A stretch of DNA of 64,000 nt, taken from contig CALFJB010000056.1 in the NCBI GenBank assembly GCA_937877565.1, positions 11,151 to 75,150 on the forward strand. The letters are read 5' to 3'. Positions 24,616-54,813 of the stretch are shown one piece after another. The notes beneath the pieces are model-generated. The model was not told the DNA's origin. It was given only the letters and a program-made list of their open reading frames with translations, and searched no databases. Within the stretch, counting starts at the first letter, position 1; the number at the start of each line of letters is the position of its first letter. Source of the DNA: an uncultured Selenomonadales bacterium (GTDB taxonomy: Bacteria; Bacillota; Negativicutes; Selenomonadales; Selenomonadaceae). The position numbers and the translations under genes are program-made.

Positions 24616-24674
24616 TAAACTCCACGACCTTAAACTCTCTCTTACTATCTCTATTCAAGCTGCTCCTCAAATTC
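24616..24674 (+). repeat. left copy of a perfect 59-bp direct repeat (partner 54342-54400)
   Basis: Both copies read TAAACTCCACGACCTTAAACTCTCTCTTACTATCTCTATTCAAGCTGCTCCTCAAATTC. This copy supplies the last 7 codons and stop of the acyl-CoA synthetase gene on the opposite strand. Confidence 0.95.
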
Positions 24675-26285
24675 TAGAGCGACGAGTTTATCTGCGCCGT
24701 AGGTTTTACGCAGGAGCGGTTTTTCAATTTTACCGGTAGCGTTACGGGGGACGCGGGCGAAAATAATTTTACGCGGGCGTTTGTAGCGGGGCAAATCGTT
24801 ACAGAAGTTTAAGACTTCATCGGCGGAAAGGTTGAAACCGTCTTTGAGTTCGATAATCGCGGCGGCAATTTCGCCTAAGCGTTTATCGTGCAGACCAATA
24901 ACGGCGACGTCTTTAATGGCGTCGTTTTTACGTAGGAAGTCCTCAATTTGGACGGGGTAGATATTTTCACCGCCTGAAACTATGACGTCTTTTTTTCTGT
25001 CAACGAGGTAGTAAAAGCCGTCATTATCTTGTTTAGCCATATCGCCGGTAAGAAGCCAACCGTCCTTTAAGACTTCGGCAGTGGCGGTAGGGTCGTTGTA
25101 ATAGCAAGTCATCACGCCGGGACCAAATACGGCAAGTTCGCCGACTTCTCCGCGTTTAACTTCGTTTAAATTGTCGTCAACGATTTTGCATTGCCAACGG
25201 TAACCGGGGATTCCAATTGCGCCGACTTTGTGAATATTGTCTAAGCCTAAGTGAACGCAGCCGGGACCGGTAGATTCAGATAAACCATAATTAGTATCGT
25301 ATTGATGATTGGGAAAATACTTTTTCCAACGTTTAATGAGTGAAGGCGGAACAGGTTGTGCGCCGATGTGCATTAAACGCCATTGATTTAAGTTAAAATC
25401 TTGAAGTTTCAAAATGCCGCTGTCAAGTTCGTCAAGAATATCTTGCGCCCACGGGACAAGAAGCCAAACAATGGTACAATGTTCATTGGAAATGGCGGAA
25501 AGAATATCACGCGGCTTAGTGCCTTTTAAAAGTACAGCCTTAGAGCCTGCGACAAGACTACCCATCCAGTGAAATTTTGCGCCGGTGTGGTAAAGTGGCG
25601 GGATGCACAAGAAGCAGTCGTCACGATTAGTAAGATGGTGGACTTGTTCCATTTGCGCGGCTTGAATCAGCGATTGGTGATTGTGTAGAATAGCCTTAGG
25701 AAAACCGGTAGTACCAGAACTGAAATAAATAGCGGCGTCGTCGTCATCAGTCAATTTAATATTGGGCGAAAGGCTTTTACAGTTGGCGGCTAGGATATGG
25801 TAAGACTCTGCGAATGACGGGCAGTTATTGCCGACAAAAATCAATTTAACGTCATTCAATTTATCCGAAATAGCCTCAATTCTGCCAATAAATTCTTCGC
25901 CGAAGAAAATTACATTGACGTTGGCGAGTTTAGCGCAATAGAGAATTTCATCAGCCGTGTAACGGAAATTGAAGGGAACGGCAACTGCGCCGGTTTTTAA
26001 AATACCGAAGTAAATAGGCAACCAGTCAAGGCAGTTGTACATAATCAAGGCGACTTTATCACCTTTATTAATGCCGTGTTCGATAAGGAAATTGGCGCAA
26101 CGGTTAGCTTTTTCGTCGAAGACGCGCCACGTAATATCTGCGCGAGAATCGGCAAAACGATTAGACTCAATTAAATCGAAATCTTTCCACGTACGTTTAA
26201 CGGTATTAGCGGGATTCAGTTCAATTAGAGCGGTTTCATCGGGATAAAGTTTAGCGTTACGTTCCAGATATTCCGTTACGGGCAC
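24651..26285 (-). CDS. AMP-dependent acyl-CoA synthetase/ligase
   Basis: AMP-binding motif YFSSGTTGFPKA, GWLLTGDMA, PRNATGKI; GTG start after AGGAGG. Confidence 0.85.
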   Translation of the reverse strand: MPVTEYLERNAKLYPDETALIELNPANTVKRTWKDFDLIESNRFADSRADITWRVFDEKANRCANFLIEHGINKGDKVALIMYNCLDWLPIYFGILKTGAVAVPFNFRYTADEILYCAKLANVNVIFFGEEFIGRIEAISDKLNDVKLIFVGNNCPSFAESYHILAANCKSLSPNIKLTDDDDAAIYFSSGTTGFPKAILHNHQSLIQAAQMEQVHHLTNRDDCFLCIPPLYHTGAKFHWMGSLVAGSKAVLLKGTKPRDILSAISNEHCTIVWLLVPWAQDILDELDSGILKLQDFNLNQWRLMHIGAQPVPPSLIKRWKKYFPNHQYDTNYGLSESTGPGCVHLGLDNIHKVGAIGIPGYRWQCKIVDDNLNEVKRGEVGELAVFGPGVMTCYYNDPTATAEVLKDGWLLTGDMAKQDNDGFYYLVDRKKDVIVSGGENIYPVQIEDFLRKNDAIKDVAVIGLHDKRLGEIAAAIIELKDGFNLSADEVLNFCNDLPRYKRPRKIIFARVPRNATGKIEKPLLRKTYGADKLVALEFEEQLE

Positions 26286-26315
26286 TTCAGCACCTCCTTT
26301 TACTTAACTGATTGT

Positions 26316-26343
26316 ATTATACATTGTGTTAAAAATTTGTCAA
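26316..26343 (-). promoter_or_regulatory. sigma-70 promoter of the acyl-CoA synthetase gene
   Basis: Minus strand reads TTGACA, 16 nt, TGTATAAT (extended -10). Confidence 0.6.
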
Positions 26344-26350
26344 TACAGGG

Positions 26351-26379
26351 CAAAAAAAAAGATGGCGGAAATTTCCGCC
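26351..26379 (-). terminator. intrinsic terminator ending the phage late operon
   Basis: Minus strand reads GGCGGAAATTTCCGCC followed by a T9 run. Confidence 0.75.
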
Positions 26380-26388
26380 GGTAAAAAA

Positions 26389-26721
26389 TTATTCTAAGCC
26401 GTATAAATCAAAAAGTGCGTCGTAAATATCTAGAATTGCCGCTTTAACTTCTTCGACGCTGTGAGCCTGCTGAAGATTTTCGCGCAGGACGTTTTGAATT
26501 TGAATGCCGCCGTCGACTTTTTTAATTAAAACTGTCGGCGTATTTTCTATTGGCGGCTTATCTAAGATTGAATTAATTTCGCCGTCGATTGAAATACCTT
26601 CGGCGTCGTCTTCGCTGCAGAAAATCCACGTGCCGTTGTTATTGCGGCGGATGTAGCGCGGTGTTTCCACGTTGAAACTTTCGCCGGTTGTCGTGTTTAT
26701 TATTTTGTACAAATTTTTCAC
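26389..26721 (-). CDS. hypothetical phage protein
   Basis: 110-aa ORF, last gene of the late operon. Confidence 0.5.
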   Translation of the reverse strand: MKNLYKIINTTTGESFNVETPRYIRRNNNGTWIFCSEDDAEGISIDGEINSILDKPPIENTPTVLIKKVDGGIQIQNVLRENLQQAHSVEEVKAAILDIYDALFDLYGLE

Positions 26722-26742
26722 TCCTTCACTGTATCCTAAAAA

Positions 26743-27003
26743 CTACTCCTTCAGCTTTTGTATTTCAAATTTAATCTGATGAAGTTCCTCGCGCAGGATT
26801 GTTTCAAGTGAATTTAATCGACTTTCAAAAATTTCAATGCGCTGTACAAGGAAATTGGTTTGTAATTGAAGTTGAGAAACTGCATTTGACAGCGCACTTA
26901 CGGAATCAGCCAATTCTTTCATTTTATCAATTCCTTTGAAGATTAAAATACAGTTGATAACGCCGAGTGCGCCGAGCTCCAGAAGTTTTGCGTACTCTTC
27001 CAT
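26743..27003 (-). CDS. small membrane-anchored coiled-coil protein (possible holin or lysis accessory)
   Basis: N-terminal hydrophobic helix LGALGVINCILIF followed by a heptad-rich helix; assignment is speculative. Confidence 0.4.
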   Translation of the reverse strand: MEEYAKLLELGALGVINCILIFKGIDKMKELADSVSALSNAVSQLQLQTNFLVQRIEIFESRLNSLETILREELHQIKFEIQKLKE

Positions 27004-27015
27004 AATTTCACCGCC

Positions 27016-28236
27016 TTAAATATCAGCGATGAACAGGTTTTCGTCGTCTGGCATTGCGGAATTTTCATTTTCGGGATTGAGATTTAAAAGTTGGACAGGG
27101 GCGGTTAAATCATAATCAAAACCAGTAGCAGAGACGAACGGAATATAGCGAACAGTGCCGCTTGTTACGCCGTACAAATTCGTTTCAAAGGTGACTCTAC
27201 CTCTTGAATAATAAGTAGTTATTTTTGTTCCGTTTTCAATAGCTGTAACTGTGGGAGTATCCCTTAGAATCAGCAAATCTGAATTTTGATTAAAGCCGTA
27301 AAAATTCAGCGTTGCTTTAGATTTATCAAAAATAGCAATAGTATTATTGCCTTCGGCGGTGCAAAGTGAATAATTGCCACGAGAAGAGTACTCTTTTAAA
27401 CCGATGAACTGATAACCGTGCGCTGTGGTGTCAATCGTTGCATTTTTAGCAAAACTATGAGTACTAAAAAGCGTACAATGTTGCCCTGTGTTTAAGTATA
27501 AATTAGACTCGCGTGCCTTAAGGCTGCAATAATCGCCGGAATTGTTAAAATAATACGCATTGTCTAAAGTGACGTGGTCGCCGCTGTTTGTAACCCTTCC
27601 ATAATTACAATAAACGCTGTCGCCGGTATTTGTACAAAAGGGAGTATAAAAATTAGAACTTTGAATACTCACATTGTTGCCGCTATTTGAAACTGAAGAA
27701 TACGTATATATTTTAGTGTCCGAGTCATAGTCAGTGCAACTATCGTTGACGATTATTGAACAAGACGCGCCGCTGTTTGTAATTGTTTTTGCGCCGCTGT
27801 AATTAAATGTGCCCTTCGCCGAAATAGTTACACTGTCGCCGGTATTTAAAATTGAATCGTGCCCATTGCCGCAGGCAATGCTGACGCTGTCGCCGATATT
27901 TTCTATTGTGTCGTCGCCCGCGCCGGTTACGATTGTTACCGCGTCCAAACTATTTCTTACCACGTCGTTATATTCGCCGGTATGAATTTGCTCAAAATCT
28001 GAATTGATTATACTGACTGCGCGGCTTTCAGCGTATATGACGTTGTCCGGCACTATCACAACGTCGTCAGTTTCTACTTTTTCAATCGCAGTTAAAGTGT
28101 TGTCAGAAAGGCCTGCAACGTGCGCCACGAAAACCGCCACGTCTGAATCTGCCGCCAATGGATTTACGTTGCTGATGTTTTTCGTTACTTCCGCGCCGTT
28201 CGCCTTCCTCGTCGTGTAATTTATCGAATTTGCCAT
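27016..28236 (-). CDS. phage protein: small-paralog N-domain fused to a beta-helix-like repeat domain
   Basis: N-terminal 60 aa are paralogous to the 66-aa protein upstream. They are followed by more than 8 repeats of N(S/T)GD.(V/C)(S/T)(I/L). Confidence 0.6.
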   Translation of the reverse strand: MANSINYTTRKANGAEVTKNISNVNPLAADSDVAVFVAHVAGLSDNTLTAIEKVETDDVVIVPDNVIYAESRAVSIINSDFEQIHTGEYNDVVRNSLDAVTIVTGAGDDTIENIGDSVSIACGNGHDSILNTGDSVTISAKGTFNYSGAKTITNSGASCSIIVNDSCTDYDSDTKIYTYSSVSNSGNNVSIQSSNFYTPFCTNTGDSVYCNYGRVTNSGDHVTLDNAYYFNNSGDYCSLKARESNLYLNTGQHCTLFSTHSFAKNATIDTTAHGYQFIGLKEYSSRGNYSLCTAEGNNTIAIFDKSKATLNFYGFNQNSDLLILRDTPTVTAIENGTKITTYYSRGRVTFETNLYGVTSGTVRYIPFVSATGFDYDLTAPVQLLNLNPENENSAMPDDENLFIADI

Positions 28237-28237
28237 T

Positions 28238-28438
28238 TTAATCCCCCAATTCAGGTATTTCTAAATCACTCTTCGATACTTTTTCAATTTTTTCTACAGA
28301 ATTGTTGCTCAATCCATTCAACGCCACTATAAAACTTGACAGCTCGTTATTCGTCGCGTTCGGATTTACATTGCTGATGTTGCGGGTTACTTCCTTGCCG
28401 TTCCCGCGTTTTGTTGTTACTTTTAATGTTGTTGACAT
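28238..28438 (-). CDS. small phage protein, DUF1659/DUF2922-like paralog
   Basis: MSTTLKVTTKRGNGKEVTRNISNVNPNATNNELSSFIVALNGL aligns with the N-terminus of the 406-aa protein. Confidence 0.6.
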   Translation of the reverse strand: MSTTLKVTTKRGNGKEVTRNISNVNPNATNNELSSFIVALNGLSNNSVEKIEKVSKSDLEIPELGD

Positions 28439-28463
28439 TTTTAATTTCTCCTTTCAGTCGAAA

Positions 28464-28584
28464 TTAGGTGTTAGGAATTAGGTGTTAGGAATTAGGTGTT
28501 AGGAATTAGGTGTTAGGTGTTAGGTGTTAGGTATTAGGGATTAGGGATTAGGGAAGTGTAAAACCTAAAACCTAAAACCTAAAC
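28464..28584. repeat. heptamer array forming an imperfect hairpin (TTAGGTG/TTAGGAA/TTAGGGA arm, CCTAAAA arm)
   Basis: Read directly; about 17 units. It overlaps the stop codon of the fiber gene and is followed by leader 28447-28461. Confidence 0.9.
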
Positions 28585-31500
28585 AGTAAAGCACGGCACA
28601 AATCCATACTGCAAGCACGGATTATCTGCATACATCCTGCCCATATACAATCCTAAATAATTTGTACCGTCCGTCGAACGACTCCAATTTCCAAAATATA
28701 GGTACAAGTGTCCCTCATACGTCATCGTCTGAAATGTATTCCCCGCTGCAAAAAAATCATACCGCTCTTGAAATGAATAATCTTCACTGTAACCCGACGG
28801 CAGCCAACTTGCATGCGTCGTCCCCCGCCATTCGTACCACGACATTCGCCATATCTTCTTTATTTCATATTCCCTGCCATTGTACTTTTTGCACTCCCTT
28901 ATATACGCCGCGGGTCCTCCATCTATCAAACTGTAAAAATTGTCTGGATCGTAATTAAATGTAAACGCCGCGCCATCACTGCCCGTCATTCCTTCACTAA
29001 AATTCAGCGGCGATAATACCTCCCATTGCGTAAGATGAGAGCCGGCCGTCCTAAATACCGCAAAATGTGCCCGCTTATCGCCTTCAATCGTCGCGTTGTG
29101 ATTTATTCCCATCAGTACCGCCACTAATTCTGTACCGCTTCCAAAACTTAAATCGCCCAAACTGCCTTTTACCGTCAGCTTTTTAGTTTCGCCCACGTCA
29201 AAATTTTCCGCCAGCGTTCCATTACGCGCCCACGTCGCTATCTTCGCCCAACTTAAATCATTCAACCTCAACGCTATTTTTAGCGGAACAATTCTAAAAT
29301 GACGCGAACGCTTATAATTGGCAGTCTCACTTAGATATATTTCAATGCTATATTCTATATCCGTTCGGGCTACATAATCCGGCGAATCTAAAAGCGTTTC
29401 TCCTTCTTCCCAAGTTTCTGCAGTAATGTGATATGACCTTATACCCGTCAACGTCAGCTTACCTGCCGTGCTGTCAAATGTCGATTCAAAAAAATAATTC
29501 CACGCTTTATGAAGTGTCTTTGTTATAATGCCGTCGCCGGTTTTACTTGTAACTGTAAAAGTGCGCGTCAGCTTCTTTGGCGTAAAATTTGTACGGTAGT
29601 AAATTGATTCAGCGGGTACGCCGCCAATTACTTCAAAAGTGCTGCCGTCGCTGACTGTAACCGTGAATGACGGTTCAGCTTTTTCAATCGTGAAGGTAAA
29701 AGTTTTTGCGCCGTAACTGCCATCAGCCCACGTGCAACAATTTCGCGGCGTCAATGTTATTTCGTAACTGCCCGCGTTCGTAAATGAAGTTGCCGCGTCT
29801 TTCGTCCCGCCGCCTGTACAGAATAAAAATAAACCATTCGTTGCCAAGTCTGAATCGCCCGCAATCGCTGAAAAGCCTTCAGTCCATTTGTGCGCCGTCC
29901 CGTCGTAAGTTATCGTTACATCCTGCGCGAGCGTGCTGAAATAATCCGGCAGTGCGTACGGCTCCAAATTTACCAAAATACTTTTATCAGCAGTCGTTCC
30001 ATCAGACCACGTGTAATTTGTTTTATCTTTCAAACTGACAGTGCTTGCTTTTATTTTTGACGTGTGAGAATCATCGAACCAAGACGATACTTTTGATTCA
30101 ACGACGGACACGGTAGCACCGAAATAAAAGCCGTTGGCGTTTGCATCTCTCCCGTTGGTAGTGTTTGCCTTCGTCATTAAATTCACGTCGTACCCGTTCA
30201 AAACTACGTACCAAGACATTTTACTTGAAGTTACAACCTGATAAGTTGAGCCGGTGGGAATAGGAATTGCCTGCCCGCCAATTTCCCAATGTATTTCGTA
30301 AGTTGCCGCAGTCAAGCCGTCGAATTGGTAACAAGTTGGTTTTTTCAAAGTGAAAGTTGCCGTATAATTTCCAACGTTCGCCGCCGAATAGACGCCGCCC
30401 AGTGTCATTAAAGTTTCATCGTAATTTTCAAACTCTAAAACTTTTGTACTGCCATCTGAAACAAAGTAAGTTGAAGTCGCCGCCGGGCGTGCAACTGTCG
30501 CCTTCAAAATTTTAAAATCCACGTAAATTGGGTCAGTTGCGCCGTCGTCTTCCCATTCGCAGCTGTCATTGGGCGTAAAATAGCAGGTATAATCGCCGGG
30601 CAAAATCATTCCAACATAGCCCGTGCCTTCAACGTAACCATCGCCGTAACGTTGAAATTCCCTGCCGCTCCAATTCGCAACCGTCGCCGAATGATATTTT
30701 CCGTCGTACGTGTGAACCGTCGTAGTTATAATTGGCTTAGCAATCGGCTTGCGGTTAATCGTCCACGTTACATTTTTAGCAGTTGTGGTTCCATCAGACC
30801 ACGTGTAATTTTCCTTCGGCGTTATTGTTGCCGTATAAGTGCCGGCGTTTATCGCTGAATTGCCGGTTATGTCGTGGTACGTTGAATCAAAGTTTTGAAT
30901 CGTAGGTCTTTGAGTCCTGCCAAGATAGTAAGTCAAAGTCCCAACTTGTTCAAAGCCGCTTGACATTTCCTCCGTCAATTTCGCCCGTGTAATTTGCCAC
31001 GTTAAATCGTGTGGTACGCGTGCATATGCTACTTGCCCGCCGAAATATGTATTTACATTATCTTTCAGCGTCAAAGTTATTGTATAGTTGCCAACATTTG
31101 CAGCTGAAGTGTCGCCGGTTATGGTACACCATTTTTGATAATAAGTTAAATTGTATTCGCTAAGTATTGAGCCGCTCAACTTATAAACAAGCTCCGGCGT
31201 AAATTCCGCGCCGTTGTATTCGTATTCGGTGTACTTCAACGACGGCGATTTTATTTCAAGTGCTTTAATTTTCCAATTCAAAGTTATTGGCGCGGTAGTT
31301 CCATCAGTCCACGTGTAACTTGCATCTTTGAGCGTGAAAGTCAAAGAATAATCGCCGACTGTTGTAGCCTTCCACGTTCCTTCCGCCGTCATTAATTCTT
31401 CATTGTAATTTCTGACAGGCGCGGTTTGTTCTTCGCCGCTGTAATTTAAACTGTAAGAAGCTGTCGTGAAAGGCCATTTCGGCGGGGTAACTTTGTTCAG

Positions 31501-33387: not shown

Positions 33388-33425
33388 TCTTTCACCACCG
33401 TTTTATTTATTTTTATCTTTTTTAT

Positions 33426-33496: not shown

Positions 33497-33497
33497 T

Positions 33498-33540
33498 CCT
33501 AACACCTAACACCTAAAACCTAACAGCTAACACCTAAAAC
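33498..33540. repeat. heptamer array (CCTAACA/CCTAAAA/CCTAACAG)
   Basis: Read directly; encodes the last residues (LGVSC stop) of the 392-aa ORF. Confidence 0.85.
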
Positions 33541-34944: not shown

Positions 34945-34952
34945 CAATTATT

Positions 34953-35698: not shown

Positions 35699-35752
35699 AG
35701 GATACAGGATACAGCTTAAAAAAATGTTTCCTGTCTCCTGTTCCCTGTTTCC
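35699..35752. repeat. heptamer hairpin of a second unit type (AGGATAC x2 arm, CCTGTCT/CCTGTTC/CCTGTTT arm)
   Basis: Read directly; intercistronic. Confidence 0.8.
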
Positions 35753-35757
35753 TAAAA

Positions 35758-36252: not shown

Positions 36253-36255
36253 CTT

Positions 36256-36285
36256 CCTGTCCCCTGTCTCCTGTCCCCTGTCTCC
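36256..36285. repeat. heptamer array (CCTGTCC/CCTGTCT)
   Basis: Read directly; abuts the sheath stop codon. Confidence 0.8.
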
Positions 36286-37931
36286 TATATAAACAACGTC
36301 TCAAAATAACTCGTGTCTACTTCCATCTCAAATACTATCTCCTGCGCAGGCGGCGGACTCAACCAGTACAATCTAAAGTGTAACGCCCCACTCATCAAAT
36401 TCGCCGTCGTATTCTCATCTTCCGGAAATTCAAGCCTTGCTCCTAATAACGCTCCTCGCGCCGCCAAACTGCTCAAATATATGTTCGCACTCTGCAATAT
36501 CCCTTCTATGTTCCGCCTATTTATCGGATTGTCCAAATTCGTAAAATAAGTTATCGTCAAATACGCCGTCAAAAAATTCAACATCCTACGCGTCGCTATA
36601 AATTCGTCCTTATAGTCTTCGCCGGGTCCTACACTCGTATAATTACCCCAATATTTCCAGCTCCCCCAACTAAATACCGTCCCTACTCCATTTGCATTTA
36701 ACAAATTAGCCTGCTCCTGCAACAATATCATTTCCGTTCCATCTGCTGTCACCGCGCTGTCAATTTGCAATCGCTGATTCGACGGGCTCACATACGGCAA
36801 CCCGTCATTTTGACTGTCTACCTGATTCATCAACGCCGCTAAATGTGTTGACAAGTAATATTGCACGCCGTCCAACGCAACTTTAGGATAACAAACTATT
36901 AAATGCGGGTCGGACAAATTGCTCTGATTCTTAAATTCTATCGCCGCTTGATACGTCGTATTTCGTGCGCTGTCCAAGTCCGCTATCGCCACACCTTTAA
37001 ACACGCCGTCTATCGACTTCGCCTTATTCGTCAACGCCGCCGCCACGCTATTTTGTAAACTGTACTTAGGCGCAATTAACGTTCCAGGTACTATGTTAAA
37101 GCGCGCGTAAATCCCACCCACTTTTTCGATATTGTCTATTATATCCTGCGCCGTCACTGCAGACGGATCCAATTCGTGGTACGTCACTTTCACTTTGTCG
37201 TCAATTATCAAACTTTCATCCAAAATTGTTACCTGCGCGAAACTATCGCCGCTTTGAATATCAAAATCCAAACTGCGCAAATTATTTATACCGCGCGTCG
37301 TCACTTCCACTGATTCTAAAATGGCGTCTTCAGGTAATACGTACTTGCCATTTGTTAAATTAGCGTAAGCAACTTCAACTACTACCGGTTCGCCGCCAAG
37401 TGCCGTTTCAGTTTTACGGTAACTGATTTTCACAGTCCCGCCCAATAAAATTTTGCCGCTTGCATTTGAAATTGTAACGGACTTTTCAGTTATGGCTTCG
37501 TCGCCTTCGCCGGTCGTTACTTCCGCCGTCGTAATGTCATCAGCTAAATCAATATCGCCTTGATTGACGCCGGTCGTAACTGCAACCGTGTCCAAAATGA
37601 CTTCGCCTTCAAGTTTGAAACTTGCCTGCCCTTCAATTTCTTTTTCAATTTCCTTGAAATGTTTGCTGCCGTTCAGCGCGTTAATGCAGATAACCGGCGC
37701 AACGTTGTACAATTTGAAAAAGGTTGCTGCCACTTCCTCAAGCGTGTAATTGTCAAAGTCGCCGACGTAACCGAAATTTTCCACAAATTCCTTGTACGTG
37801 TAGCAGATAACCGGTTTGTCCTGCGCGATTTTCGCAGTGCCTATCGCAACGCAAATGCCGCTGTCAATTTGTACAGGAGCTTGAATTTGCGTCGCCACTT
37901 CACTAATATAAATTCCGTGTCTTATTGCCAT
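36285..37931 (-). CDS. contractile tail sheath protein
   Basis: N-terminus MAIRHGIYISEV..VAIGTA..KPVICYTYKEFVENFGY..YTLEEVA and C-terminal ..LPYVSPSNQ..GNYTS..RRML..DNPINRRN match the remembered Mu/P2-type sheath pattern. Confidence 0.7.
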   Translation of the reverse strand: MAIRHGIYISEVATQIQAPVQIDSGICVAIGTAKIAQDKPVICYTYKEFVENFGYVGDFDNYTLEEVAATFFKLYNVAPVICINALNGSKHFKEIEKEIEGQASFKLEGEVILDTVAVTTGVNQGDIDLADDITTAEVTTGEGDEAITEKSVTISNASGKILLGGTVKISYRKTETALGGEPVVVEVAYANLTNGKYVLPEDAILESVEVTTRGINNLRSLDFDIQSGDSFAQVTILDESLIIDDKVKVTYHELDPSAVTAQDIIDNIEKVGGIYARFNIVPGTLIAPKYSLQNSVAAALTNKAKSIDGVFKGVAIADLDSARNTTYQAAIEFKNQSNLSDPHLIVCYPKVALDGVQYYLSTHLAALMNQVDSQNDGLPYVSPSNQRLQIDSAVTADGTEMILLQEQANLLNANGVGTVFSWGSWKYWGNYTSVGPGEDYKDEFIATRRMLNFLTAYLTITYFTNLDNPINRRNIEGILQSANIYLSSLAARGALLGARLEFPEDENTTANLMSGALHFRLYWLSPPPAQEIVFEMEVDTSYFETLFI

Positions 37932-37955: not shown

Positions 37956-38145
37956 TAGGGACTAGGGACTAATCCTTAACCCCTAACACCTAATCCCTAA
38001 CCCCTAATCCCTAATCCTTAACCCCTAACCCCTAATCCTTAACCCCTAATCCTTAACCCCTAACCCCTAATCCTTAACCTCTAATCCTTAACCCCTAACC
38101 CCTAATCCTTAACCCCTAACCCCTAATCCTTAACCCCTATAACCT
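37956..38145. repeat. longest heptamer array (TAGGGAC x2, then about 24 units of CCTTAAC/CCCTAAC/CCCTAAT)
   Basis: Read directly; runs into the last codons (LGYRG stop) of the upstream gene; leader 37939-37953 precedes the sheath start. Confidence 0.9.
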
Positions 38146-39079: not shown

Positions 39080-39101
39080 AAGAATTTCTCCTTCGTCGAA
39101 A

Positions 39102-39176
39102 TTAGCTGTTAGCTGTTAGCTGTTAGCTGTTAGGTATTAGGGATTAGGGAAGTGTAAAACCTAAAACCTAAACCCT
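39102..39176. repeat. heptamer hairpin array (TTAGCTG x4, TTAGGTA, TTAGGGA x2 arm; CCTAAAA arm)
   Basis: Read directly; overlaps the last codons (GFRF stop) of the 116-aa gene. Confidence 0.9.
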
Positions 39177-44970: not shown

Positions 44971-45016
44971 AGGCGAACGTCTTTTCAGACCTGCAAAAAA
45001 ATATAATAAACAATAA

Positions 45017-47393: not shown

Positions 47394-47609
47394 TGCTACT
47401 CCTTGTATTTTTCACTTTTTCGACTATTTATTATAAAAAAACGTTCGCCGACTCCTCAAAATTACAAATACTAGTGTTTTAATTTTTTCGTGCCTGCAAA
47501 AAAATTGGACTTCCGCCGCGCTACCGGCTTTTTTTTCGTTCACAGGACCCATTATAAATCCTGCGCGACCAACTCATTAAAAAGGCGTATAAAATTTTAT
47601 TTGAAACAG

Positions 47610-47638
47610 TTGAAAATTCAACGAGTTTAGATTATGAT
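47610..47638 (+). promoter_or_regulatory. sigma-70 promoter of the plus-strand moron
   Basis: TTGAAA, 17 nt, TATGAT, 28 nt upstream of the ATG. Confidence 0.6.
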
Positions 47639-47665
47639 ATTCAAAACTTTTAAGGAGTGTTTCTA

Positions 47666-49089: not shown

Positions 49090-49092
49090 ATA

Positions 49093-49120
49093 CCAAAAAA
49101 GCCGCATCACCGGCTGCGGC
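49093..49120 (-). terminator. intrinsic terminator immediately upstream of the late-activator ORF
   Basis: Minus strand reads GCCGCAGCCGGTGATGCGGC followed by T6. Confidence 0.6.
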
Positions 49121-49124
49121 TTCG

Positions 49125-49420
49125 TTGGTTTAACCCGTACAAAAATTTTATAAGGAGGTTTTACCGATTGCCTTAATGGACAACTACGATAACCCGTTAA
49201 AAGTTTAACCCGAAAGGGGGATTCTTAAATGGATAACCCGTTGTTAAATACTGAAAACCTAAAACTTGACTCAAAAAAAACGCCTAGAGAAAAAAAACAA
49301 GAGTAAAGAAAGTAACAAATTAGAAAGGTGTTAATAATTTGGTGTGATACAGAGAAATACCAAGAATAAAGAAAGTAACAAATTAGAAAGGGGGGTGTTA
49401 ACGTTTTGGTGTGATACCAA
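49125..49420. promoter_or_regulatory. phage regulatory spacer with iterated motifs
   Basis: TAACCCG at 49131, 49190, 49206, 49234. Direct repeats of about 50 bp at 49304-49350 and 49367-49417 (TAAAGAAAGTAACAAATTAGAAAGG...TGTTAA..TTTGGTGTGATAC). Confidence 0.7.
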
Positions 49421-49544
49421 TGATTGTAAGTGATTTATCTTGAAGTTGGTTTAAAACTGTAGATTTTCTACTGTAGAAATTATATCAAACTTTTCTGAAT
49501 TTGTCAGCAAAATAAGCAGAATATTTCTTTAAAATAATTTTTCT

Positions 49545-50513
49545 TTACCTGAACATAAAGTTTGTATTTGTTTCCTCCAACGCCGCTTTTTCGGCTTCGT
49601 ACTTCGCCTTCAACTCCTCGTACGTTTTGCCCTGCTCAAGTGCAAGTTTGTAACGTCCGTAACTTAACCCGCACTCCGACGCCTCCAACGCCATTAACTT
49701 TTGATGGTCGCGGTTGCCAAGTTTAAAGCGTTCAAGTTTGCTCATTGGCTCAATAGGTTTGGGATTCGCCGGGCTCCACTCCGATTCTCTGTTTTCAATT
49801 TCCTTGTAGTAATGAAACTTCGACTTTTTAGGTTTTACCGGCTTTTCAGTTTGAGCTGATGAAACGCCTGAAAGGTCTGCGTAACGTTTTTGACGACGCT
49901 TTATAATTTTTTGCTTGAGCCAATAACTTTTTCTACATTCCTCACTGCAAAATTTTTGCTGCCCGCCACCTTCCGCCATAAATTTTTTCCCGCAATTCAC
50001 GCAAATTTTTTCAACCGGCGGTTTTGGCTTATACGCAAATTTCTGATACCCAATGGCTTGACATTTATCGCTGCAGTAAAGGTGATGGTTTTTTTCCGGT
50101 ACAAATTCCTTTCCGCAAATTTCACATTTCCTTGAAAGTTTAGCCGGTTTACTTGTCGCCTTCGCGTAACATTGAACGTTTTTACATTTCTTGCTACAGT
50201 ACTTTTGATTTGGAATGACAGTTTCAAATTCCTCGCCGCAGATTGGACATTTCAATTTGCGCAATGTTCCTTTTACGCCGTTTTTCTTTTTTATATGTCT
50301 AGCCCTGTAATAACAAGTTCTGGAACAGTAAATTTTGCTCGGGTACGCGGTTTTAAATTCTGCGCCGCAAATTACGCACTTTCTCACGTACACCGGCGAA
50401 TTTTGGGTTTTTTTAGCTTTTTGAGCTTTTAGGTAACAAGAAAGCGAACAATATTTCTGGTCGCGTCTTCTTGCCTCATACTCCTTCCCGCAAATTTCAC
50501 ATTTCTTAATCAT
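49545..50513 (-). CDS. phage protein with five tandem zinc-ribbon repeats
   Basis: Five repeats of C.(I/N)CG(K/A/E)(E/K)F....(Q/H)KYCS..C, then a helical C-terminus. Confidence 0.65.
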   Translation of the reverse strand: MIKKCEICGKEYEARRRDQKYCSLSCYLKAQKAKKTQNSPVYVRKCVICGAEFKTAYPSKIYCSRTCYYRARHIKKKNGVKGTLRKLKCPICGEEFETVIPNQKYCSKKCKNVQCYAKATSKPAKLSRKCEICGKEFVPEKNHHLYCSDKCQAIGYQKFAYKPKPPVEKICVNCGKKFMAEGGGQQKFCSEECRKSYWLKQKIIKRRQKRYADLSGVSSAQTEKPVKPKKSKFHYYKEIENRESEWSPANPKPIEPMSKLERFKLGNRDHQKLMALEASECGLSYGRYKLALEQGKTYEELKAKYEAEKAALEETNTNFMFR

Positions 50514-50901
50514 TTACTACCGCCGCCTTAGTATACGCCTTTTTTCCGGCACTGCTCGGCACGCGCCACACTTTCAACTTTACAGGTTTCTTTTTCAAAT
50601 ACTCTACGACTTTGCTTTCATCGCCGCAGAAGTAGTCCACCCAACTTTGCCAAATTTTCCCTAAGTCTCCTGCAACTGCGTAAAAATGTTGGCGCGGATT
50701 CTCCTCAAACGTCAACGCCGGTAAATGCTTGCCTTTAATGTTTACCTGAAACGCGCCGTTTACCGTAACGCCTTCAGGGTACTTCGCTATTAAATCGTCG
50801 ATACTCAAATATTCGCCGTTGCCCACTGCCTCACGGGCGATCTTCGCTAAAATGTTCCCGCCCTCTACTGCTGTCGCCGCTGCTTTCGCCAATTCGTTCA
50901 T
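50506..50901 (-). CDS. hypothetical phage early protein (131 aa)
   Basis: ORF in the early operon; no family recognised. Confidence 0.5.
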   Translation of the reverse strand: MNELAKAAATAVEGGNILAKIAREAVGNGEYLSIDDLIAKYPEGVTVNGAFQVNIKGKHLPALTFEENPRQHFYAVAGDLGKIWQSWVDYFCGDESKVVEYLKKKPVKLKVWRVPSSAGKKAYTKAAVVND

Positions 50902-50911
50902 TTTTTCAACT

Positions 50912-50998
50912 CCTAAAATAAGGGCTAAGGTTTAAGGGTTAAGGGAAAAATCCATAATCCTTAGTCCCTAATCATTAATCCCTAATCCTTAATCCCTG
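50912..50998. repeat. heptamer hairpin array (CTAAGGT/TTAAGGG arm; TCCTTAG/TCCCTAA/TCATTAA/TCCTTAA arm)
   Basis: Read directly; overlaps the stop codon of the DnaC-like gene. Confidence 0.85.
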
Positions 50999-51909
50999 AT
51001 TAAGCGACGGTCTGAACCTTTCAGCGATGCAACTTTGCACATTTGCTTTAAACGGCTTGCGATTCTGTCGCCGGTCTTACCGTCCTTGCCTAAATTCATT
51101 CGCACCGCCAATTCATTCAACGTGTAATTCGACGTTATCAAAGTCTGCCTCTCGTTGTTGTAACGTTCATTTATCACAAGGTACAGTCGTTCTATCGCCC
51201 ACTCCGTCAAATTTTCAGTCCCAATATCATCCAGTATCAGCACGTCTACTTTTTCCAGCAATTCCATTTTACTTTCTATCGTATCTTCCGACCCTTTGGC
51301 GAAACTTGCACGCAGCTGATTTAAAAGTTTCGGTACGTCTATGAAAAGTAACGTCCTGCCCTGCTTGATATATTCCTGCGCGACCAACGCCACTAAAAAT
51401 GTTTTGCCCGTTCCGGGTTCCCCGTACAAAAACAGATTTAATGGATTGTCGATTATGTGACGCGCCCACTTTACCGCGCCTTCATTATTTTCATCTATTT
51501 TATAATCCTCGAACGTCTTGCCATTGTAACGAACAGGCACTTCCGCGCTTTTAAACTTTTTCATCAGCGCAGTTGCCAAACGCTGCTGCTTGCAATATTT
51601 GCATTCGCACCAACGCAATTTCAAACGATTGTCCTCAACTAAAACTTGATAACGAAAACCTACATTTGTTTCCTTCGCGCAGGGATAACCCGTGCAAGTC
51701 GCGCAGACTGCGCATTCACGCTCGGCGCGGCGTTCCTGACTCAAAAAGTACACGTCAATTCCAATACTCGTATCAGGATAAACTTTGCGCCACTTTTCGT
51801 AACCCGCTTCATTGAGCTTGTTGAGTTTCGCGGTATTCGCCGCCATCAATTCCTCAAAACCAATTTCCTTTAAATAAGTTTGAAAATCTACAATTTTAAG
51901 TTCTTCCAT
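50989..51909 (-). CDS. DnaC/IstB-like helicase loader ATPase
   Basis: Walker A GEPGTGKTFLV, Walker B VLILDDIG, ..ERYNNERQTLITSN; N-terminal Cys-rich segment. Confidence 0.8.
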   Translation of the reverse strand: MEELKIVDFQTYLKEIGFEELMAANTAKLNKLNEAGYEKWRKVYPDTSIGIDVYFLSQERRAERECAVCATCTGYPCAKETNVGFRYQVLVEDNRLKLRWCECKYCKQQRLATALMKKFKSAEVPVRYNGKTFEDYKIDENNEGAVKWARHIIDNPLNLFLYGEPGTGKTFLVALVAQEYIKQGRTLLFIDVPKLLNQLRASFAKGSEDTIESKMELLEKVDVLILDDIGTENLTEWAIERLYLVINERYNNERQTLITSNYTLNELAVRMNLGKDGKTGDRIASRLKQMCKVASLKGSDRRLIRD

Positions 51910-51910
51910 C

Positions 51911-52090
51911 TTATTCCTCTTCCTTCATCAATTCGTTTAACTTTTCGCGGACTTCTTCAAGCGTCTTGCAGTACGTTATGAAGTCCCCGCGTTTAGTGAA
52001 AAGCGCGTAACCTTCGCCCGTTATCGAATGCAATTTGTAACCGCCAAAACGCGCCTTGAGATACAATCTCTGCACCTCTTTATCTGCCAT
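51911..52090 (-). CDS. small hypothetical early protein (59 aa, below ORF-track cutoff)
   Basis: MADKEVQRLYLKARFGGYKLHSITGEGYALFTKRGDFITYCKTLEEVREKLNELMKEEE fills the gap; its stop abuts the next start. Confidence 0.45.
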   Translation of the reverse strand: MADKEVQRLYLKARFGGYKLHSITGEGYALFTKRGDFITYCKTLEEVREKLNELMKEEE

Positions 52091-52092
52091 AA

Positions 52093-52437
52093 CTACTCCT
52101 CCTTTTTATATTTTTCAATGAAGTACTTGTAAAATTCTTCCGCCAAATGGTACGCGGCGGTTTGAATGTATTCATCCAGCAAGTCGATAATCAAACGCTC
52201 CAAACTCACGCCGCGCACTACCGCCAAAATCGACAAATCGTTATACATTTCCTCCGGCAAGCTAATCTCAATTTGCTCCGTTGCGCCTTCGCCTTCGCTA
52301 ACTGCCTTTTCGGCAAGTTGGGTAACGTATTCTTCAACGCTCAATTTTTCGGCTTCCGCCATTTCCTCTAAACGCTCGTACTTTTCCGGCGTCATTTCAA
52401 TTTCCAACAACGCTGTATCTTCATCAAATTCAATCAT
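52093..52437 (-). CDS. acidic protein with two ribbon-helix-helix-like repeats
   Basis: Two copies of the pattern ..I.(M/L)(T/P)(P/E)E.Y..L...A......S.E..(V/I)...L. Confidence 0.5.
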   Translation of the reverse strand: MIEFDEDTALLEIEMTPEKYERLEEMAEAEKLSVEEYVTQLAEKAVSEGEGATEQIEISLPEEMYNDLSILAVVRGVSLERLIIDLLDEYIQTAAYHLAEEFYKYFIEKYKKEE

Positions 52438-52450
52438 TTTTTCCGCTCCT

Positions 52451-52786
52451 TTACTTTTTCGGAAAATCTATTTCGGTTGCGCCGTACCAGTCAGCCACGT
52501 AACTTTTTACCGCGTCTTCAATCAAACGCCCAACTTTCACTTTGCTTACCAACTCAATAATTTTTAAATCGTCGCACAGCTCCTCCGGCAATTCAACTTC
52601 AAGCGTCACCGTGTCGCCGTCCTCAAATTCGTTTTTAATTTCGCACCAATCTTCGGTATATTTTTTTACCGCGTCCTCAATCAAGCTTGCTACGTCAACT
52701 TCGCTTACCATCTCAATTACTTCCAAGTCGTCATACAGCACTTCCGGTAATGCTATCGTGACGCTTACCACTTTTGTATCTGCCAT
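52451..52786 (-). CDS. acidic protein with two ribbon-helix-helix-like repeats
   Basis: Internal duplication: V.(I/V).LPE(V/E)L(Y/C)DDL..IE.VS.V.V..LIEDAVK.Y..DW occurs twice. Confidence 0.55.
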   Translation of the reverse strand: MADTKVVSVTIALPEVLYDDLEVIEMVSEVDVASLIEDAVKKYTEDWCEIKNEFEDGDTVTLEVELPEELCDDLKIIELVSKVKVGRLIEDAVKSYVADWYGATEIDFPKK

Positions 52787-52798
52787 TTCTTTCTCTCC

Positions 52799-53578
52799 TT
52801 ATTCCGGCAATTCGTCATCGCCGCCGTAATTGTCGGCAACTTTTTTCACTTTCTGCCCAACGTTGGACAGCACTTTCTCTAAAAGCGGCAATGTCAACGC
52901 GCCTTTTTTGTCGTAACGACCTGCCGCTTCTATCGCCTTCAAAAGTTTTTCCGTCCCGTAAGTGTTTTCAAGTTCAATCAGTGTCAACGCTACGCCGCCG
53001 CTGTACGGTACGCCATTCCATTTCCGCCACATTTCAACGACTGCCGCACTGTTCGTACTTTTGGGCGCATCTTTGACCTCCGCGCGTAGATTTTTTTCCG
53101 GCTCGTCGCCTTCAAAAACCGCCTCGCGCGCGCCCGCTGCAGTAGGAGGAGGAGGAGGAGCTGTCTCCTTCTCCTCTCTCTCTCCGTCTTTATTTTTTTT
53201 AATATTTAATAAGCCCAGGAAATTTTCAACACTTTTTCGCCCAATTTCGGTTTTTCTTTCAAAACTTTTCTCCTCATTTGGGTTTAAAAAAAAGCGGTTT
53301 TTACCGTTCCCTAAGTTATTTTCTGTAAGTTTATAGACGCGCTTTTTACTTTGAATCGCTCCCGCGTTCAGCAGAGCGTTACGCGCGCTATCGAATGATG
53401 CACTGGATTTGATACCGCTCAGGTGTTGCAAGTACTCGTTTGACAGTTTCAATTCCGCCGGATACCTCGCCTCGTTGAATTCGCCCAATATTGCAAAATA
53501 CAAACTGCGGGCATTCGCGCTTAAATTCTCACGTCTGCTCAAGCCCTGAAACCAATTATAGTGGTCTATCAGTGTCAT
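52799..53578 (-). CDS. replisome organiser, DnaD-like
   Basis: N-terminal winged-helix-like region plus a C-terminal DnaD/DnaB-2-like segment; it is the first early gene, followed downstream by the DnaC-like loader at 50989-51909. Confidence 0.5.
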   Translation of the reverse strand: MTLIDHYNWFQGLSRRENLSANARSLYFAILGEFNEARYPAELKLSNEYLQHLSGIKSSASFDSARNALLNAGAIQSKKRVYKLTENNLGNGKNRFFLNPNEEKSFERKTEIGRKSVENFLGLLNIKKNKDGEREEKETAPPPPPTAAGAREAVFEGDEPEKNLRAEVKDAPKSTNSAAVVEMWRKWNGVPYSGGVALTLIELENTYGTEKLLKAIEAAGRYDKKGALTLPLLEKVLSNVGQKVKKVADNYGGDDELPE

Positions 53579-53679
53579 TCCCTACACCTCTATTCCTTTT
53601 TCAATGATCCGTTTTTAAGTTGCCTTTTTTCGCCCCTTAGGTGTATAATACAGTATCTTTTTTACGAAAGGGGCTTTTT

Positions 53680-54813
53680 ATGTCTGAAATTAATCTTGAA
53701 GCGTTAATCGCCAAAAAATCCGCGTCGGCGTCTTCACCAGCCGCCGCCGCGCCTGCTCCTGCGGAGCAGTTGTCGGACGACTTTTCGCCTGACGACTTAG
53801 CTAAAATCGAACAAATTAAAAATTCTATCGATATTACCGATTCTAACGCCGCCTCCTCCTTCGCCAACTCCGCTCAGGCTGACATCGCTAACTTCTCTAA
53901 CTCCATCCTCTCTAACATCCGCAATAAAGACTCCGGCCACGTCGGACTTCTTCTCAATAACCTCATTAACCACGTTAATTCCTTCGACCCTAACCCCTCC
54001 TTCCTCGATAAAATCCCCTTCCTCAACTCCATCCGCTCCCATTCCTCCAGACTACTCAACTCCTTCCAAAAAATCTCCACTCAAATCGATAAAATCTCTT
54101 CCGCTCTCTCCAATTCTAAACTTAAACTCCTCGAGGACATCGCTACTCTCGATATCCTCTACCAAAAAAACCTCGACTACTTCCACCAACTCAAACTCTT
54201 CATTCACGCCGGCGACCTCAAACTCAAAGAACTTCGCGAGGTCTCTCTTCCTTCTCTCCAGGCTCAAGTCAATTCCTCCAACGACCCTCTCGCTCCTCAA
54301 ATCCTCGCCGACTTCTCTAACTCCTTAGACCGCTTCGATCGTAAACTCCACGACCTTAAACTCTCTCTTACTATCTCTATTCAAGCTGCTCCTCAAATTC
54401 GCCTCATCCAAAATAACGACCGCCTTCTCGTTGACAGGCTTGACGCCGCTTTACTCCACACTATCCCTCTCTGGAAAAATCAATTCATTATCGCTATCGG
54501 GCTTGCTAATCAGCAAAACGTCCTTAACCTTCACAACGCCGTCACGGATTCTACTAACTCTCTTCTTCAACAAAACGCCGCTCTTCTCAAACAAAATTCT
54601 ATCGACGCCGCTAAAGCTGCTAACCGCTCCATCGTTGACATCGATACCCTTAACAAGGTTAATCAAGACCTTATCGAAACTATTCAAGAAACCCTCAAAA
54701 TTAATCAAGACGCTCAAGCCGCTCGCCTTGACGCTGAAAATCAAATCGCCAATATTCAATCTAATATCAAAGCCGCTCTTCTTCAGGCTTCTAACCGCCA
54801 TGCAAAATCTTAA
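53680..54813 (+). CDS. telA: TelA/YaaN family toxic-anion-resistance protein
   Basis: ..AAPQIRLIQNNDRLL..IPLWKNQF..TNSLLQQNAALLK..IVDIDTL pattern. Start ATG 53680 follows AAAGGGG (the GTG 53641 in the track lies inside a TATAAT box). Confidence 0.8.
   Translation: MSEINLEALIAKKSASASSPAAAAPAPAEQLSDDFSPDDLAKIEQIKNSIDITDSNAASSFANSAQADIANFSNSILSNIRNKDSGHVGLLLNNLINHVNSFDPNPSFLDKIPFLNSIRSHSSRLLNSFQKISTQIDKISSALSNSKLKLLEDIATLDILYQKNLDYFHQLKLFIHAGDLKLKELREVSLPSLQAQVNSSNDPLAPQILADFSNSLDRFDRKLHDLKLSLTISIQAAPQIRLIQNNDRLLVDRLDAALLHTIPLWKNQFIIAIGLANQQNVLNLHNAVTDSTNSLLQQNAALLKQNSIDAAKAANRSIVDIDTLNKVNQDLIETIQETLKINQDAQAARLDAENQIANIQSNIKAALLQASNRHAKS
54342..54400 (+). repeat. right copy of the perfect 59-bp direct repeat, inside telA
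   Basis: Identical to 24616-24674; here it encodes KLHDLKLSLTISIQAAPQI within an intact telA frame. Confidence 0.95.

Follow-up and report, generated by a model that had tools for sequence, protein, structure and literature searches.

In a 64,000-nucleotide stretch of DNA from an uncultured Selenomonadales bacterium (the window, meaning the whole of that stretch), a perfect 59-bp direct repeat brackets an acyl-CoA synthetase (ACS) gene, a prophage-like element, and the 5' part of telA. Here, the left copy of this repeat is best explained as the last remnant of an old head-to-tail join between telA and ACS, which was probably overwritten later from telA by ectopic gene conversion. The right copy, in telA, is the donor of the left copy, and the repeat is a product of ordinary genome evolution.

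A perfect direct repeat around a prophage, with one copy in an intact gene, mimics a textbook att pair and calls for caution. Comparison with relatives points to a rearrangement scar probably kept identical by gene conversion, with a host gene inside the apparent element. Software that calls prophage boundaries from flanking repeats would place the limits of this element wrongly by approximately 2.4 kb, assigning ACS and half of telA to the phage. The relatives compared are related Selenomonadaceae genomes, and all of the evidence comes from short-read metagenome assemblies.

The two copies of the repeat and their host genes

The 59-mer was found exactly twice, at 24616-24674 and 54342-54400 of the window, both on the plus strand and in direct orientation, with a spacing of 29,726 bp. 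As the earlier note had described, the identity is perfect and the adjoining bases differ on both sides. A search for further copies gave only these two, even with up to 3 mismatches allowed. A shuffle control gave 0 matches in 100 shuffles, and the pair is not explained by chance.

The right copy (54342-54400, plus strand) is an in-frame segment of telA that encodes KLHDLKLSLTISIQAAPQI, the most conserved part of TelA. The telA gene (53680-54813, plus strand; 377 amino acids) is a resident host gene and is full-length, matching Pfam PF05816 with an E value of 3.9e-97. Its coding strand is G-poor and C-rich (12.2% G and 34.3% C), and the earlier note's picture of a right copy lying in frame within an intact, C-rich telA was borne out. 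The G depletion of telA is extreme. Exact look-ups of the window TelA with two alternative starts returned no record, and relatives were obtained by homology search instead. Downstream of telA, a penicillin-binding protein (PBP) gene (54800-56836, plus strand) forms part of the conserved host synteny.

The left copy (24616-24674, plus strand) is a telA-derived fragment with 100% identity to telA 54342-54400. On the minus strand, 24651-24674 provides the last 7 codons and the stop of ACS (EFEEQLE, then stop), as the note had stated, and 24616-24650 is ACS 3' untranslated region. The ACS gene (24651-26285, minus strand) encodes an AMP-binding protein of 544 amino acids. It is a resident host gene with host-like codon usage (G3 of 11% and C3 of 35%, versus a G3 of 28 to 32% in the phage-like genes) and a perfect TTGACA-16-TATAAT promoter (26316-26343, minus strand); that the segment holds a host-like metabolic gene with its own consensus promoter was likewise confirmed. 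The window ACS ends in VALEFEEQLE, versus the native VAIEFNS in relatives at 97% identity; more distant relatives end in ENRS. To the left of 24616 lie an AT-rich spacer and the gene for a GT2 glycosyltransferase (23714-24463, plus strand), which is a host gene, and the displaced telA 5' half is indeed missing there.

The phage-like element and the attachment-site reading

An integrase-less phage-like element of approximately 27 kb occupies the ACS/telA intergenic region (approximate limits 26346-53620, minus strand), and relatives keep the element at the same site. Its genes include a replication module with a DnaC-like loader, terS, a gpA-type TerL, a lambda-type portal, a ClpP protease, capsid E, a tail sheath, a 1602-amino-acid repeat protein, and DUF1659 proteins. 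A terminator hairpin (GGCGGAAATTTCCGCC followed by a T run; 26364-26379, minus strand) stands after the element's last gene, beside the ACS promoter. Recognizable integration and lysis functions are missing from the element, as are some tail functions.

In agreement with the earlier note, no integrase or recombinase family was detected with Pfam and/or PHROGs in the twelve open reading frames of at least 250 amino acids between the repeats, nor was a recombinase present among the gene calls for 12788-33609 of the window (L081). The true phage boundaries (26286-26450 versus 53500-53700) share no direct repeat of at least 8 bp, and therefore no alternative att core can be proposed. In IMG/VR, the repeat pattern and the ACS protein each gave 0 matches, and the DnaC-like protein matched one distant phage contig only (L094), which is without ACS or telA. 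JGI metagenome contigs contained no match to the ACS 3' pattern or to the telA-repeat pattern, and searching the literature on the project accession gave only an unrelated jumbo-phage paper.

The earlier note had read the repeats as attL and attR of an element made up of ACS, the prophage, and 5' telA, and had proposed comparing the locus in phage-free relatives. In two such genomes, L017 and L034, ACS (minus strand) lies directly beside telA (plus strand) as a divergent neighbor, with no phage genes between them. The gene order in L017 is g17671, PTS genes, GT2, four genes, ACS, telA, PBP, STAS, and g57188; its ACS/telA intergenic region spans approximately 240 to 300 bp, and amino acid identity to the window is 68 to 96% per gene, with the exception of telA (51%). 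Because ACS and telA are adjacent in these phage-free genomes, ACS and the whole of telA are resident, with the phage-like DNA between them (approximately 26.35 to 53.62 kb). On this comparison, the 59-mers are not the ends of the phage-like element, which sits wholly between ACS and telA. The repeats miss the phage/host boundary, and the attL/attR reading does not stand. Nor is the left copy a fresh product of integration, being inherited in three related assemblies, in one of which it is old and diverged.

ACS as long-term phage cargo, suggested by two contigs (L092 and L093) that place ACS beside the replication module, was rejected as the main view because of its host codon usage and its host synteny beside telA in phage-free genomes. 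Across the clade, heptamer arrays are widespread.

The telA fragment in close relatives and its origin

In three close relatives (L082, L083, and L084; ACS 97% identical), a telA fragment occupies the same place and is fused to the ACS stop codon. The earlier view of telA as the source of the left copy holds. In all three, telA sequence ending in CAATCTGCT passes directly, in direct orientation, into TAGGAG, the complement of the ACS stop. The fragment reads CTATTCAATCTGCT and then TAGGAGTTGAATTCGATGGCGAC in L082 and L083, where its length (at least 63 bp) is taken from the contig end, both contigs stopping inside it. The join recurs in L084 between flanks that are both unique, the one on the GT2 side having 93% identity to that of the window; among the loci fetched, a homologue of the GT2-ACS spacer was found only there. 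With the same junction in three assemblies from three samples, the left copy is inherited by descent. No telA-like fragment occurs elsewhere in L017, L034, L092, or L093. At the nucleotide level, ACS is 96.8% identical between L084 and L082 and 92 to 93% identical between either of them and the window.

The window telA differs from the telA of L087 and L088 at 109 of 1134 nt. Three of these sites fall inside the 59-mer and one more inside the 63-nt fragment of L082, and at all of them each genome's fragment carries the bases of its own telA. The L082 fragment matches L088 telA, from the same sample, at 63/63 nt, and a second sample provides the corresponding pair, L083 and L087. Within a genome, fragment and telA show 0 differences in the window (59 nt) and 0 in the L082/L088 strain (63 nt); between the two strains, the same stretches differ at 3 and 4 sites.

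The L084 fragment carries a 77-bp insertion and matches modern telA at 47 to 48 of 59 nt (approximately 81%). It is a mosaic that agrees with the less G-depleted telA of L091 at AAAATTTCT.AAACTATCGCCATTCAA; because it matches such L091-like states, it is read as an unconverted fossil of an older telA. No telA was recovered for the L084 strain, and a match between its fragment and a divergent telA allele is conceivable instead. As a dated fossil, it would document an unusually fast, directional loss of G from telA.

The history that we consider probable would begin in the common ancestor with the close relatives, where the interior of telA (at about nt 711) would have been joined to the ACS stop codon, either by tandem duplication of the ACS-phage-telA' segment or by Campbell-type re-insertion of a circle carrying that segment. 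The redundant copy would then have been mostly deleted, along with four genes that once followed ACS, an order of events that we infer from a structure visible in the assemblies: in L017, genes for an ACP, a KASIII-like protein, an SDR, and a 247-amino-acid open reading frame lie between GT2 and ACS, and these are absent from the window and L084. About 63 to 72 bp of telA would have been left between the GT2 spacer and ACS. Finally, resident telA would have overwritten the fragment, at least twice independently, through ectopic (non-allelic) gene conversion or templated repair; the pattern is observed, and the enzymology is our proposal. Such overwriting would account for a fragment that equals its own genome's telA in two mutually different strains.

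The tract ends differ between the two strains. The L082 tract stops at the old junction; the window tract reaches 10 nt beyond it on the right, to AATTC, and has a 9-nt replacement on the left. The 59-bp window tract would have overrun the old join by 10 nt into ACS and stopped in the AATTC common to telA and the native ACS 3' end, at a cost of 4 bp and the native ACS stop. Removal of that stop would leave ACS ending in LEFEEQLE rather than IEFNS. On the other side, alignment with L084 places the left edge of the older fragment at 24600-24615 (plus strand). AACGCTT (24600-24606) is common to the window and to AACGCTTCGAACG of L084, and directly after it the 9 nt of AAATATACT (24607-24615) stand in place of CGAACG. 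AAATATACT resembles a scar where the converted tract terminates on the left.

Conversion of a diverged, L084-like fragment would have only 12 to 15 bp of identical flanking sequence to rely on, a short length for a RecA-dependent process, and the postulated full duplication is not unambiguous in any assembly. Four contigs with the ACS 3' end joined to far-side DNA (L089, L090, L092, and L093) are side issues that this history does not explain. Even so, a scar of Campbell-type or illegitimate recombination, which the earlier note had listed as an alternative, fits best with a novel telA/ACS join inherited in L082, L083, and L084. The two 59-bp direct repeats, 29.7 kb apart, could also serve RecA-mediated deletion or duplication of the interval.

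Alternative explanations and known systems

The same four contigs bear on an unlikely competitor, in which the repeats are working sites and ACS, the element, and 5' telA cycle as a 29.7-kb circle or tandem through RecA-dependent Campbell-type recombination. Each cycle would automatically renew the identity of both copies. In its favor, 59 to 63 bp exceeds the minimal length for RecA recombination, and the element has no integrase. In L089 (a Logan assembly of ERR1278104), the start of the phage replication module, telA nt 1-711, and the ACS 3' end form the predicted circle or tandem junction, its two sides being 100% identical, one to L088 and one to L082. Permuted joins of a similar kind occur at the ACS 3' end in more distant relatives: in L090, telA and 780 bp of PBP run into ACS, and in L092 and L093 the replication module directly abuts ACS. 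However, L089 is from a k = 31 assembly with approximately 3 to 4x coverage, and its structure is precisely the one that an assembler misled by a 63-bp repeat would produce. The same run also yielded the MEGAHIT contig L082, which breaks off where the repeat begins on the left, in keeping with the presence of both left neighbors. Cycling is not general, the L084 fragment being unconverted and interrupted by its insertion. Excision would strip the chromosome of ACS and of the telA promoter and 5' half, and both genes belong to the host by synteny and codon usage. If recombination across the repeat did move the element, the locus would illustrate prophage mobility independent of an integrase.

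A little less probable is integrase-free lysogeny with the telA-derived repeat as attachment site, ACS and the telA 5' segment being passengers moved by RecA cycling between the chromosome and a circle or tandem. Homology would be supplied by the cargo of the element itself, the relatives would have evolved equivalent joins through PBP or the replication-module end, and L089, L090, L092, and L093 would be real molecules.

Of similarly low probability is a single step, in which one event of replication template switching or break repair, without a duplication intermediate, removed the four genes following ACS and patched the gap with approximately 70 bp copied from telA, later conversion proceeding as in our preferred history. 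In its favor, the fragment lies exactly at the position that the ACP-KASIII-SDR-ORF block has in L017, the telA piece is short and borders unique sequence at either end in the window and L084, and the joins share short motifs, AATTC(G) at the right one and CGCTT at the left. Such a step leaves unaccounted for the comparable yet distinct joins of L090, L092, and L093, all of which connect the ACS 3' end with DNA from the element's far side. To our knowledge, few templated filler insertions with a source 30 kb distant are documented in bacteria, in contrast to frequent tandem duplications.

An assembly artefact is very improbable. The window is a short-read MEGAHIT metagenome contig (identical, across the 20.8 kb aligned, to the 96.4-kb ENA contig ERZ922531 k127_22714), sister samples of the project contain related strains side by side, and the relatives' contigs break at this spot; chimeric reads or a MEGAHIT graph error might have created the perfect identity over a true left sequence that was L084-like or lacked the fragment. 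Yet the 59-mer is flanked by unique sequence without any long word in common with telA, which leaves no graph path for its insertion; the final k of 127 exceeds 59; and a telA fragment is likewise seen at the homologous position in independent assemblies of other samples, made with other assemblers (SPAdes for L083, k87 for L084, and Logan for L089). A k-mer-sized assembly overlap was rejected, as both copies have unique flanks; 59 is presumably none of the k values of the k127 assembly. Just as improbable is selection for a putative trans antisense regulator coupling the divergent genes, in which the ACS mRNA 3' end, with 59 nt perfectly complementary to telA mRNA, would act on telA: the left copy lies inside the ACS transcript, antisense to telA, and equals its own telA in two strains despite their differences, but L084 tolerates a diverged, split fragment, all other relatives examined lack it, and conversion explains the identity without selection.

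As with attL/attR cores, two identical direct repeats of tens of base pairs enclose phage DNA, one of them in an intact host gene. Here, however, there is no integrase and no displaced gene half, the repeats miss the phage/host boundaries defined by phage-free relatives, resident ACS and resident 5' telA lie inside the bracket, and one relative has an old, diverged version of the left copy. Aberrant excision, as in lambda gal/bio specialized transducing phages, and Campbell-type integration by homologous recombination have a parallel in L089, L090, L092, and L093, where ACS from the near side adjoins either the distal prophage end or host DNA lying past it, as it would in a circle with flanking host genes; here, the joins may instead be tandem duplications or assembly paths through repeats.

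Remnants of tandem-duplication joins are similar in their head-to-tail structure (telA interior against the ACS 3' end, direct, and without extended homology), in later erosion through deletions that reach as far as the edge of a selected gene, and in inheritance by descendants. They differ in that here the full duplication is not observed, the unit would include a 27-kb phage-like element, and the remnant is re-homogenized. In known ectopic conversion systems (tufA/tufB, rRNA operons, and Neisseria pilS-to-pilE), the recipient is not, as here, a non-functional fragment of 60 to 70 bp lying 30 kb from its donor, with one tract end outside the homology at a 5- to 6-nt microhomology that alters the C terminus of a neighbor, and with no dedicated machinery or evident selective purpose found. 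What this locus has in common with them is that the copies are identical within a genome and differ between genomes, and that an unconverted lineage reveals the underlying divergence.

The 59-bp repeat and its host locus

The 59-bp sequence (TAAACTCC...CAAATTC) was present in exactly two copies in the window, at 24616-24674 and 54342-54400. Both lay on the plus strand, with a copy-to-copy spacing of 29,726 bp and different flanking bases on either side. No third copy was found in the window even at three mismatches, and the count in 100 shuffles was 0. The right copy is in frame within a full-length TelA gene (telA; PF05816, E=3.9e-97), placed in this analysis at 53680-54813 on the plus strand. 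On the minus strand, the left copy forms the C-terminal end (EFEEQLE*; seven codons plus stop) of the gene for an AMP-binding acyl-CoA synthetase of 544 aa (ACS; 24651-26285, minus strand). Exact search, flanks, Pfam and composition bore out everything that the earlier note had stated as fact on the repeat, telA and the ACS end. Across the 20.8 kb compared, the window was identical to ERZ922531 k127_22714, a MEGAHIT contig of 96 kb assembled from a bioreactor metagenome. The organism falls within the Selenomonadaceae or close to them. An assembly artefact is an unlikely origin of the repeat, because both window copies are uniquely flanked, the final k (127) is larger than 59, and a fragment is seen at the homologous site in independent assemblies.

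A TelA search of species-representative genomes gave 80 loci, and ACS was also present in two of these, the phage-free Selenomonadaceae loci L017 and L034. The gene order in L017 is g17671, PTS IIB/IIC/IID, a glycosyltransferase gene (GT2), four genes (a 247-aa ORF, SDR, KASIII-like, and ACP), ACS (minus), telA (plus), a penicillin-binding protein gene (PBP), STAS, and g57188. These genes are 68-96% identical to their window counterparts, with telA (51%) as the exception. ACS (minus) and telA (plus) are likewise immediate divergent neighbours in L034, and the ACS/telA intergenic region of L017 (about 240-300 bp) contains no phage genes. Therefore, ACS and the entire telA are resident host genes, and this synteny shows the phage-like DNA (about 26,346-53,620) to be an insert that separates their promoters. 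Both assignments are in line with codon usage: that of ACS is host-like (G3 11%, C3 35%), and the phage-like genes have G3 of 28-32%.

The phage-like element carries a replication module with a DnaC-like loader. It also encodes terS, gpA-type TerL, a lambda-type portal, ClpP protease, capsid E and a head decoration protein, along with neck proteins, a tail sheath, DUF1659 proteins, and a repeat protein of 1602 aa. No integrase, lysis genes, or tape measure were recognisable in it, and no direct repeats of at least 8 bp were found at its true boundaries. Its closest TerL relatives (41-44% identity) belong to 45-54-kb phages of Roseburia, Faecalibacterium, and Paenibacillus. A domesticated or defective prophage is one possible identity for the element. 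Strains with ACS genes 92-97% identical to each other in nucleotides (contigs L082-L088) retain it at the ACS/telA site, as does the L090 lineage, in which ACS is only 85% identical in amino acids. Within the element, a small phage gene (52451-52786) contains a 110-nt internal repeat, 72% identical (52483-52592 and 52642-52751); an acidic motif is duplicated in its protein, which has a weak Arc-like repressor match.

An inherited telA fragment and its probable conversion

ACS homologues P0002 and P0003 (97% identity) end in ...GADNLVAIEFNS*, and more distant homologues end in ...EFNS* or ...ENRS*. Three ACS contigs of close relatives (L082, L083, and L084), from three samples and three assemblers, carry the same phage-like late genes upstream of ACS, and alignment revealed a telA fragment 3' of ACS in all of them. 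The junction in L082 is GACCGCTTCGACCGTAAACTTCACGACCTTAAACTCTCTCTTTCTATCTCTATTCAATCTGCT followed directly by TAGGAGTTGAATTCGATGGCGAC, in which TAG... corresponds to the native ACS stop on the complementary strand; L083 and L084 have the same join. In L084, the fragment agrees with modern telA at no more than 47-48 of 59 nt, and an insertion of 77 bp made up of heptamer repeats interrupts it. The fragment continues into a GT2-side spacer 93% identical to that of the window, and then into GT2. Since the three contigs share the join and L084 also shares the spacer, the GT2-spacer-telA fragment-ACS architecture is real, uniquely flanked, and older than the split of these strains. No telA-like fragment of this kind was present in L017 or L034, or in L092 and L093, relatives' contigs in which the ACS 3' end is joined to other DNA.

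The telA genes of the L082 and L083 samples were recovered as contigs L088 and L087, respectively, and differ from the window telA at 109 of 1134 nt. Three of these sites fall inside the 59-bp repeat and one further site inside the 63-nt fragment of L082. The L082 fragment is identical to L088 telA, and the window 59-mer is identical to window telA. Each fragment thus carries the telA variants of its own genome, with 0 differences in the window and 0 in the L082 strain. At this strain divergence, we estimate that a fragment evolving independently would show several differences per genome. The L084 fragment is mosaic, with modern sequence on the left (CGTAAACTTCACGAC) and, at the centre (AAAATTTCT.AAACTATCGCCATTCAA), a match to telA of another relative, L091, which is less G-depleted. 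ACS nucleotide identity is 96.8% between L084 and L082 and 92-93% between the window and either of them. On the simplest reading of these alignments, L084 would retain an unconverted fossil fragment, conversion in the L082 lineage would postdate its split from L084, and the window lineage would have undergone a separate, independent conversion.

Compared with L082 and L084, window identity to telA begins at 24616. On the 5' side, AACGCTT is shared with L084 and is followed by AAATATACT instead of CGAACG. On the right, telA identity overshoots the old join by 10 nt, with CCTCAAATTC in place of TAGGAGTTGAATTC, and the tract ends in AATTC, common to telA and the native ACS 3' end. Both ends resemble repair scars and would be consistent with telA-templated synthesis resolved by microhomology. 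The native ACS stop was lost, and the C-terminus changed from IEFNS* to LEFEEQLE*. Because the AMP-binding C-terminal domain stops at residue 519 of 544 and the tail is variable among homologues, this change is probably neutral.

telA composition and other repeats

The telA coding strand contains 12.2% G and 34.3% C, with 4.5% G at codon position 2 and 6% G and 46% C at position 3. TelA shares only 51-56% identity with its counterpart in relatives that match at 72-85% in ACS and PBP. Total telA G declines in steps from L017 (21%) through L090 (18%), L020 (16%), and L091 (13%) to the window (12%). This is fast, directional evolution, a progressive G-depletion of telA across the clade in which amino acids were altered too (E, K, V, M, and G to Q, N, L, I, and S). 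The open alternative frame from this depletion lengthens the PBP ORF by 123 codons upstream (54431-56836). In strains with 97% TelA identity, a segment of about 900 bp (L085 11753-12656, L086 8092-8995) stands in place of 287 bp of the PBP gene (window 55432-55718). It contains three small minus-strand ORFs (69, 104, and 84 aa) and leaves the gene as separate PBP_dimer and transpeptidase ORFs; either an insertion or a cassette in an otherwise conserved cell-wall gene could explain it.

Tandem arrays of 3-24 heptamer units (CCCTAAC / TTAGGGN, CCTAACA, TTAGCTG, CCTGTCC, and others) occur in both orientations in host and phage-like intergenic DNA. In the window, they lie at 2486-2519, 5255-5289, 12847-12884, 28462-28590, 33498-33540, 35725-35753, 36255-36286, 37969-38139, 39101-39147, 50919-50997, and 61763-61786. 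In relatives, they lie at about 3790-3866 in L084, 1575-1610 in L088, and 240-340 in L091. Arrays at new positions in relatives, including the 77-bp insertion in L084, imply their rapid gain and loss. A 62-nt direct repeat (423-484 and 63474-63535; 85% identical, 63 kb apart) includes a GC-rich hairpin (GCCGCCAGAGGCGGC), and similar sequence lies near L082 36-131 and 2836-2917. The repeat may be a structured element dispersed among intergenic regions. Upstream of the gene at 11389-12822, in a region where ORFs overlap, lies a direct repeat of 177 nt, 90% identical with a spacing of 328 bp (10913-11089 and 11241-11417).

Origin of the join and relation to known processes

The telA interior joined in direct orientation to the ACS 3' end would be the product of a head-to-tail duplication of ACS-phage-telA', and a circle carrying this segment would, on re-insertion, yield an identical join. 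If the redundant copy was later deleted from its left side, only the join-adjacent telA would have been spared, which would also account for the absence of the four genes found after ACS in L017. Alternatively, one deletion step with templated filler could have produced the fragment. A duplication or circle is preferred as the route, because in other relatives the ACS 3' end meets different DNA from the element's far side. In L090 (ACS 85%; 1826-1900), telA plus 780 bp from the 5' part of PBP is joined about 35 bp beyond the ACS stop. In L092 (1700-1860), the replication module, with an intact phage rep gene, is joined directly to ACS, which ends in ...LVA*. In L093 (1690-1800), the module is again joined directly to ACS, which runs in frame into a 5'-truncated rep gene and is extended by 25 aa. 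The ACS 3' end is a repeated rearrangement break point in the clade, with C-termini changed to match. The clustering of break points less than about 50 bp from the ACS stop may be due to erosion by deletion as far as the last ACS codon under selection, rather than to a mechanistic hot spot.

It is unlikely that the 59-bp pair recombines actively. A Logan k=31 contig, L089 (ERR1278104; about 3-4x coverage), has exactly the circular junction that the earlier note had suggested looking for: it runs from the phage rep start through telA 1-711 and on into ACS at its 3' end. L089 is 100% identical to L088 until the repeat end and to L082 from the repeat start. The MEGAHIT contig L082 ends exactly at the left edge of the repeat, as two left neighbours would predict. 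However, a wrong path through the 63-bp repeat at about 3-4x would give the same contig, so L089 is treated as unproven. Integrase-free cycling of the element via host recombination across the repeat is a slightly more doubtful proposition still.

The attL/attR reading of the earlier note is unsupported, as three of the four defining features of an integrase att pair did not hold; its alternative, a recombination scar, is supported. Unlike an integrase att pair, the 59-bp copies have no recombinase among the ORFs of 250 aa or more between them, lie off the insert boundaries, and are accompanied by no displaced gene half. The practical point is that these copies closely mimic an att pair. The pair shows features of a duplication/illegitimate-recombination scar as well as of ectopic gene conversion, and is a fresh example of already known processes.
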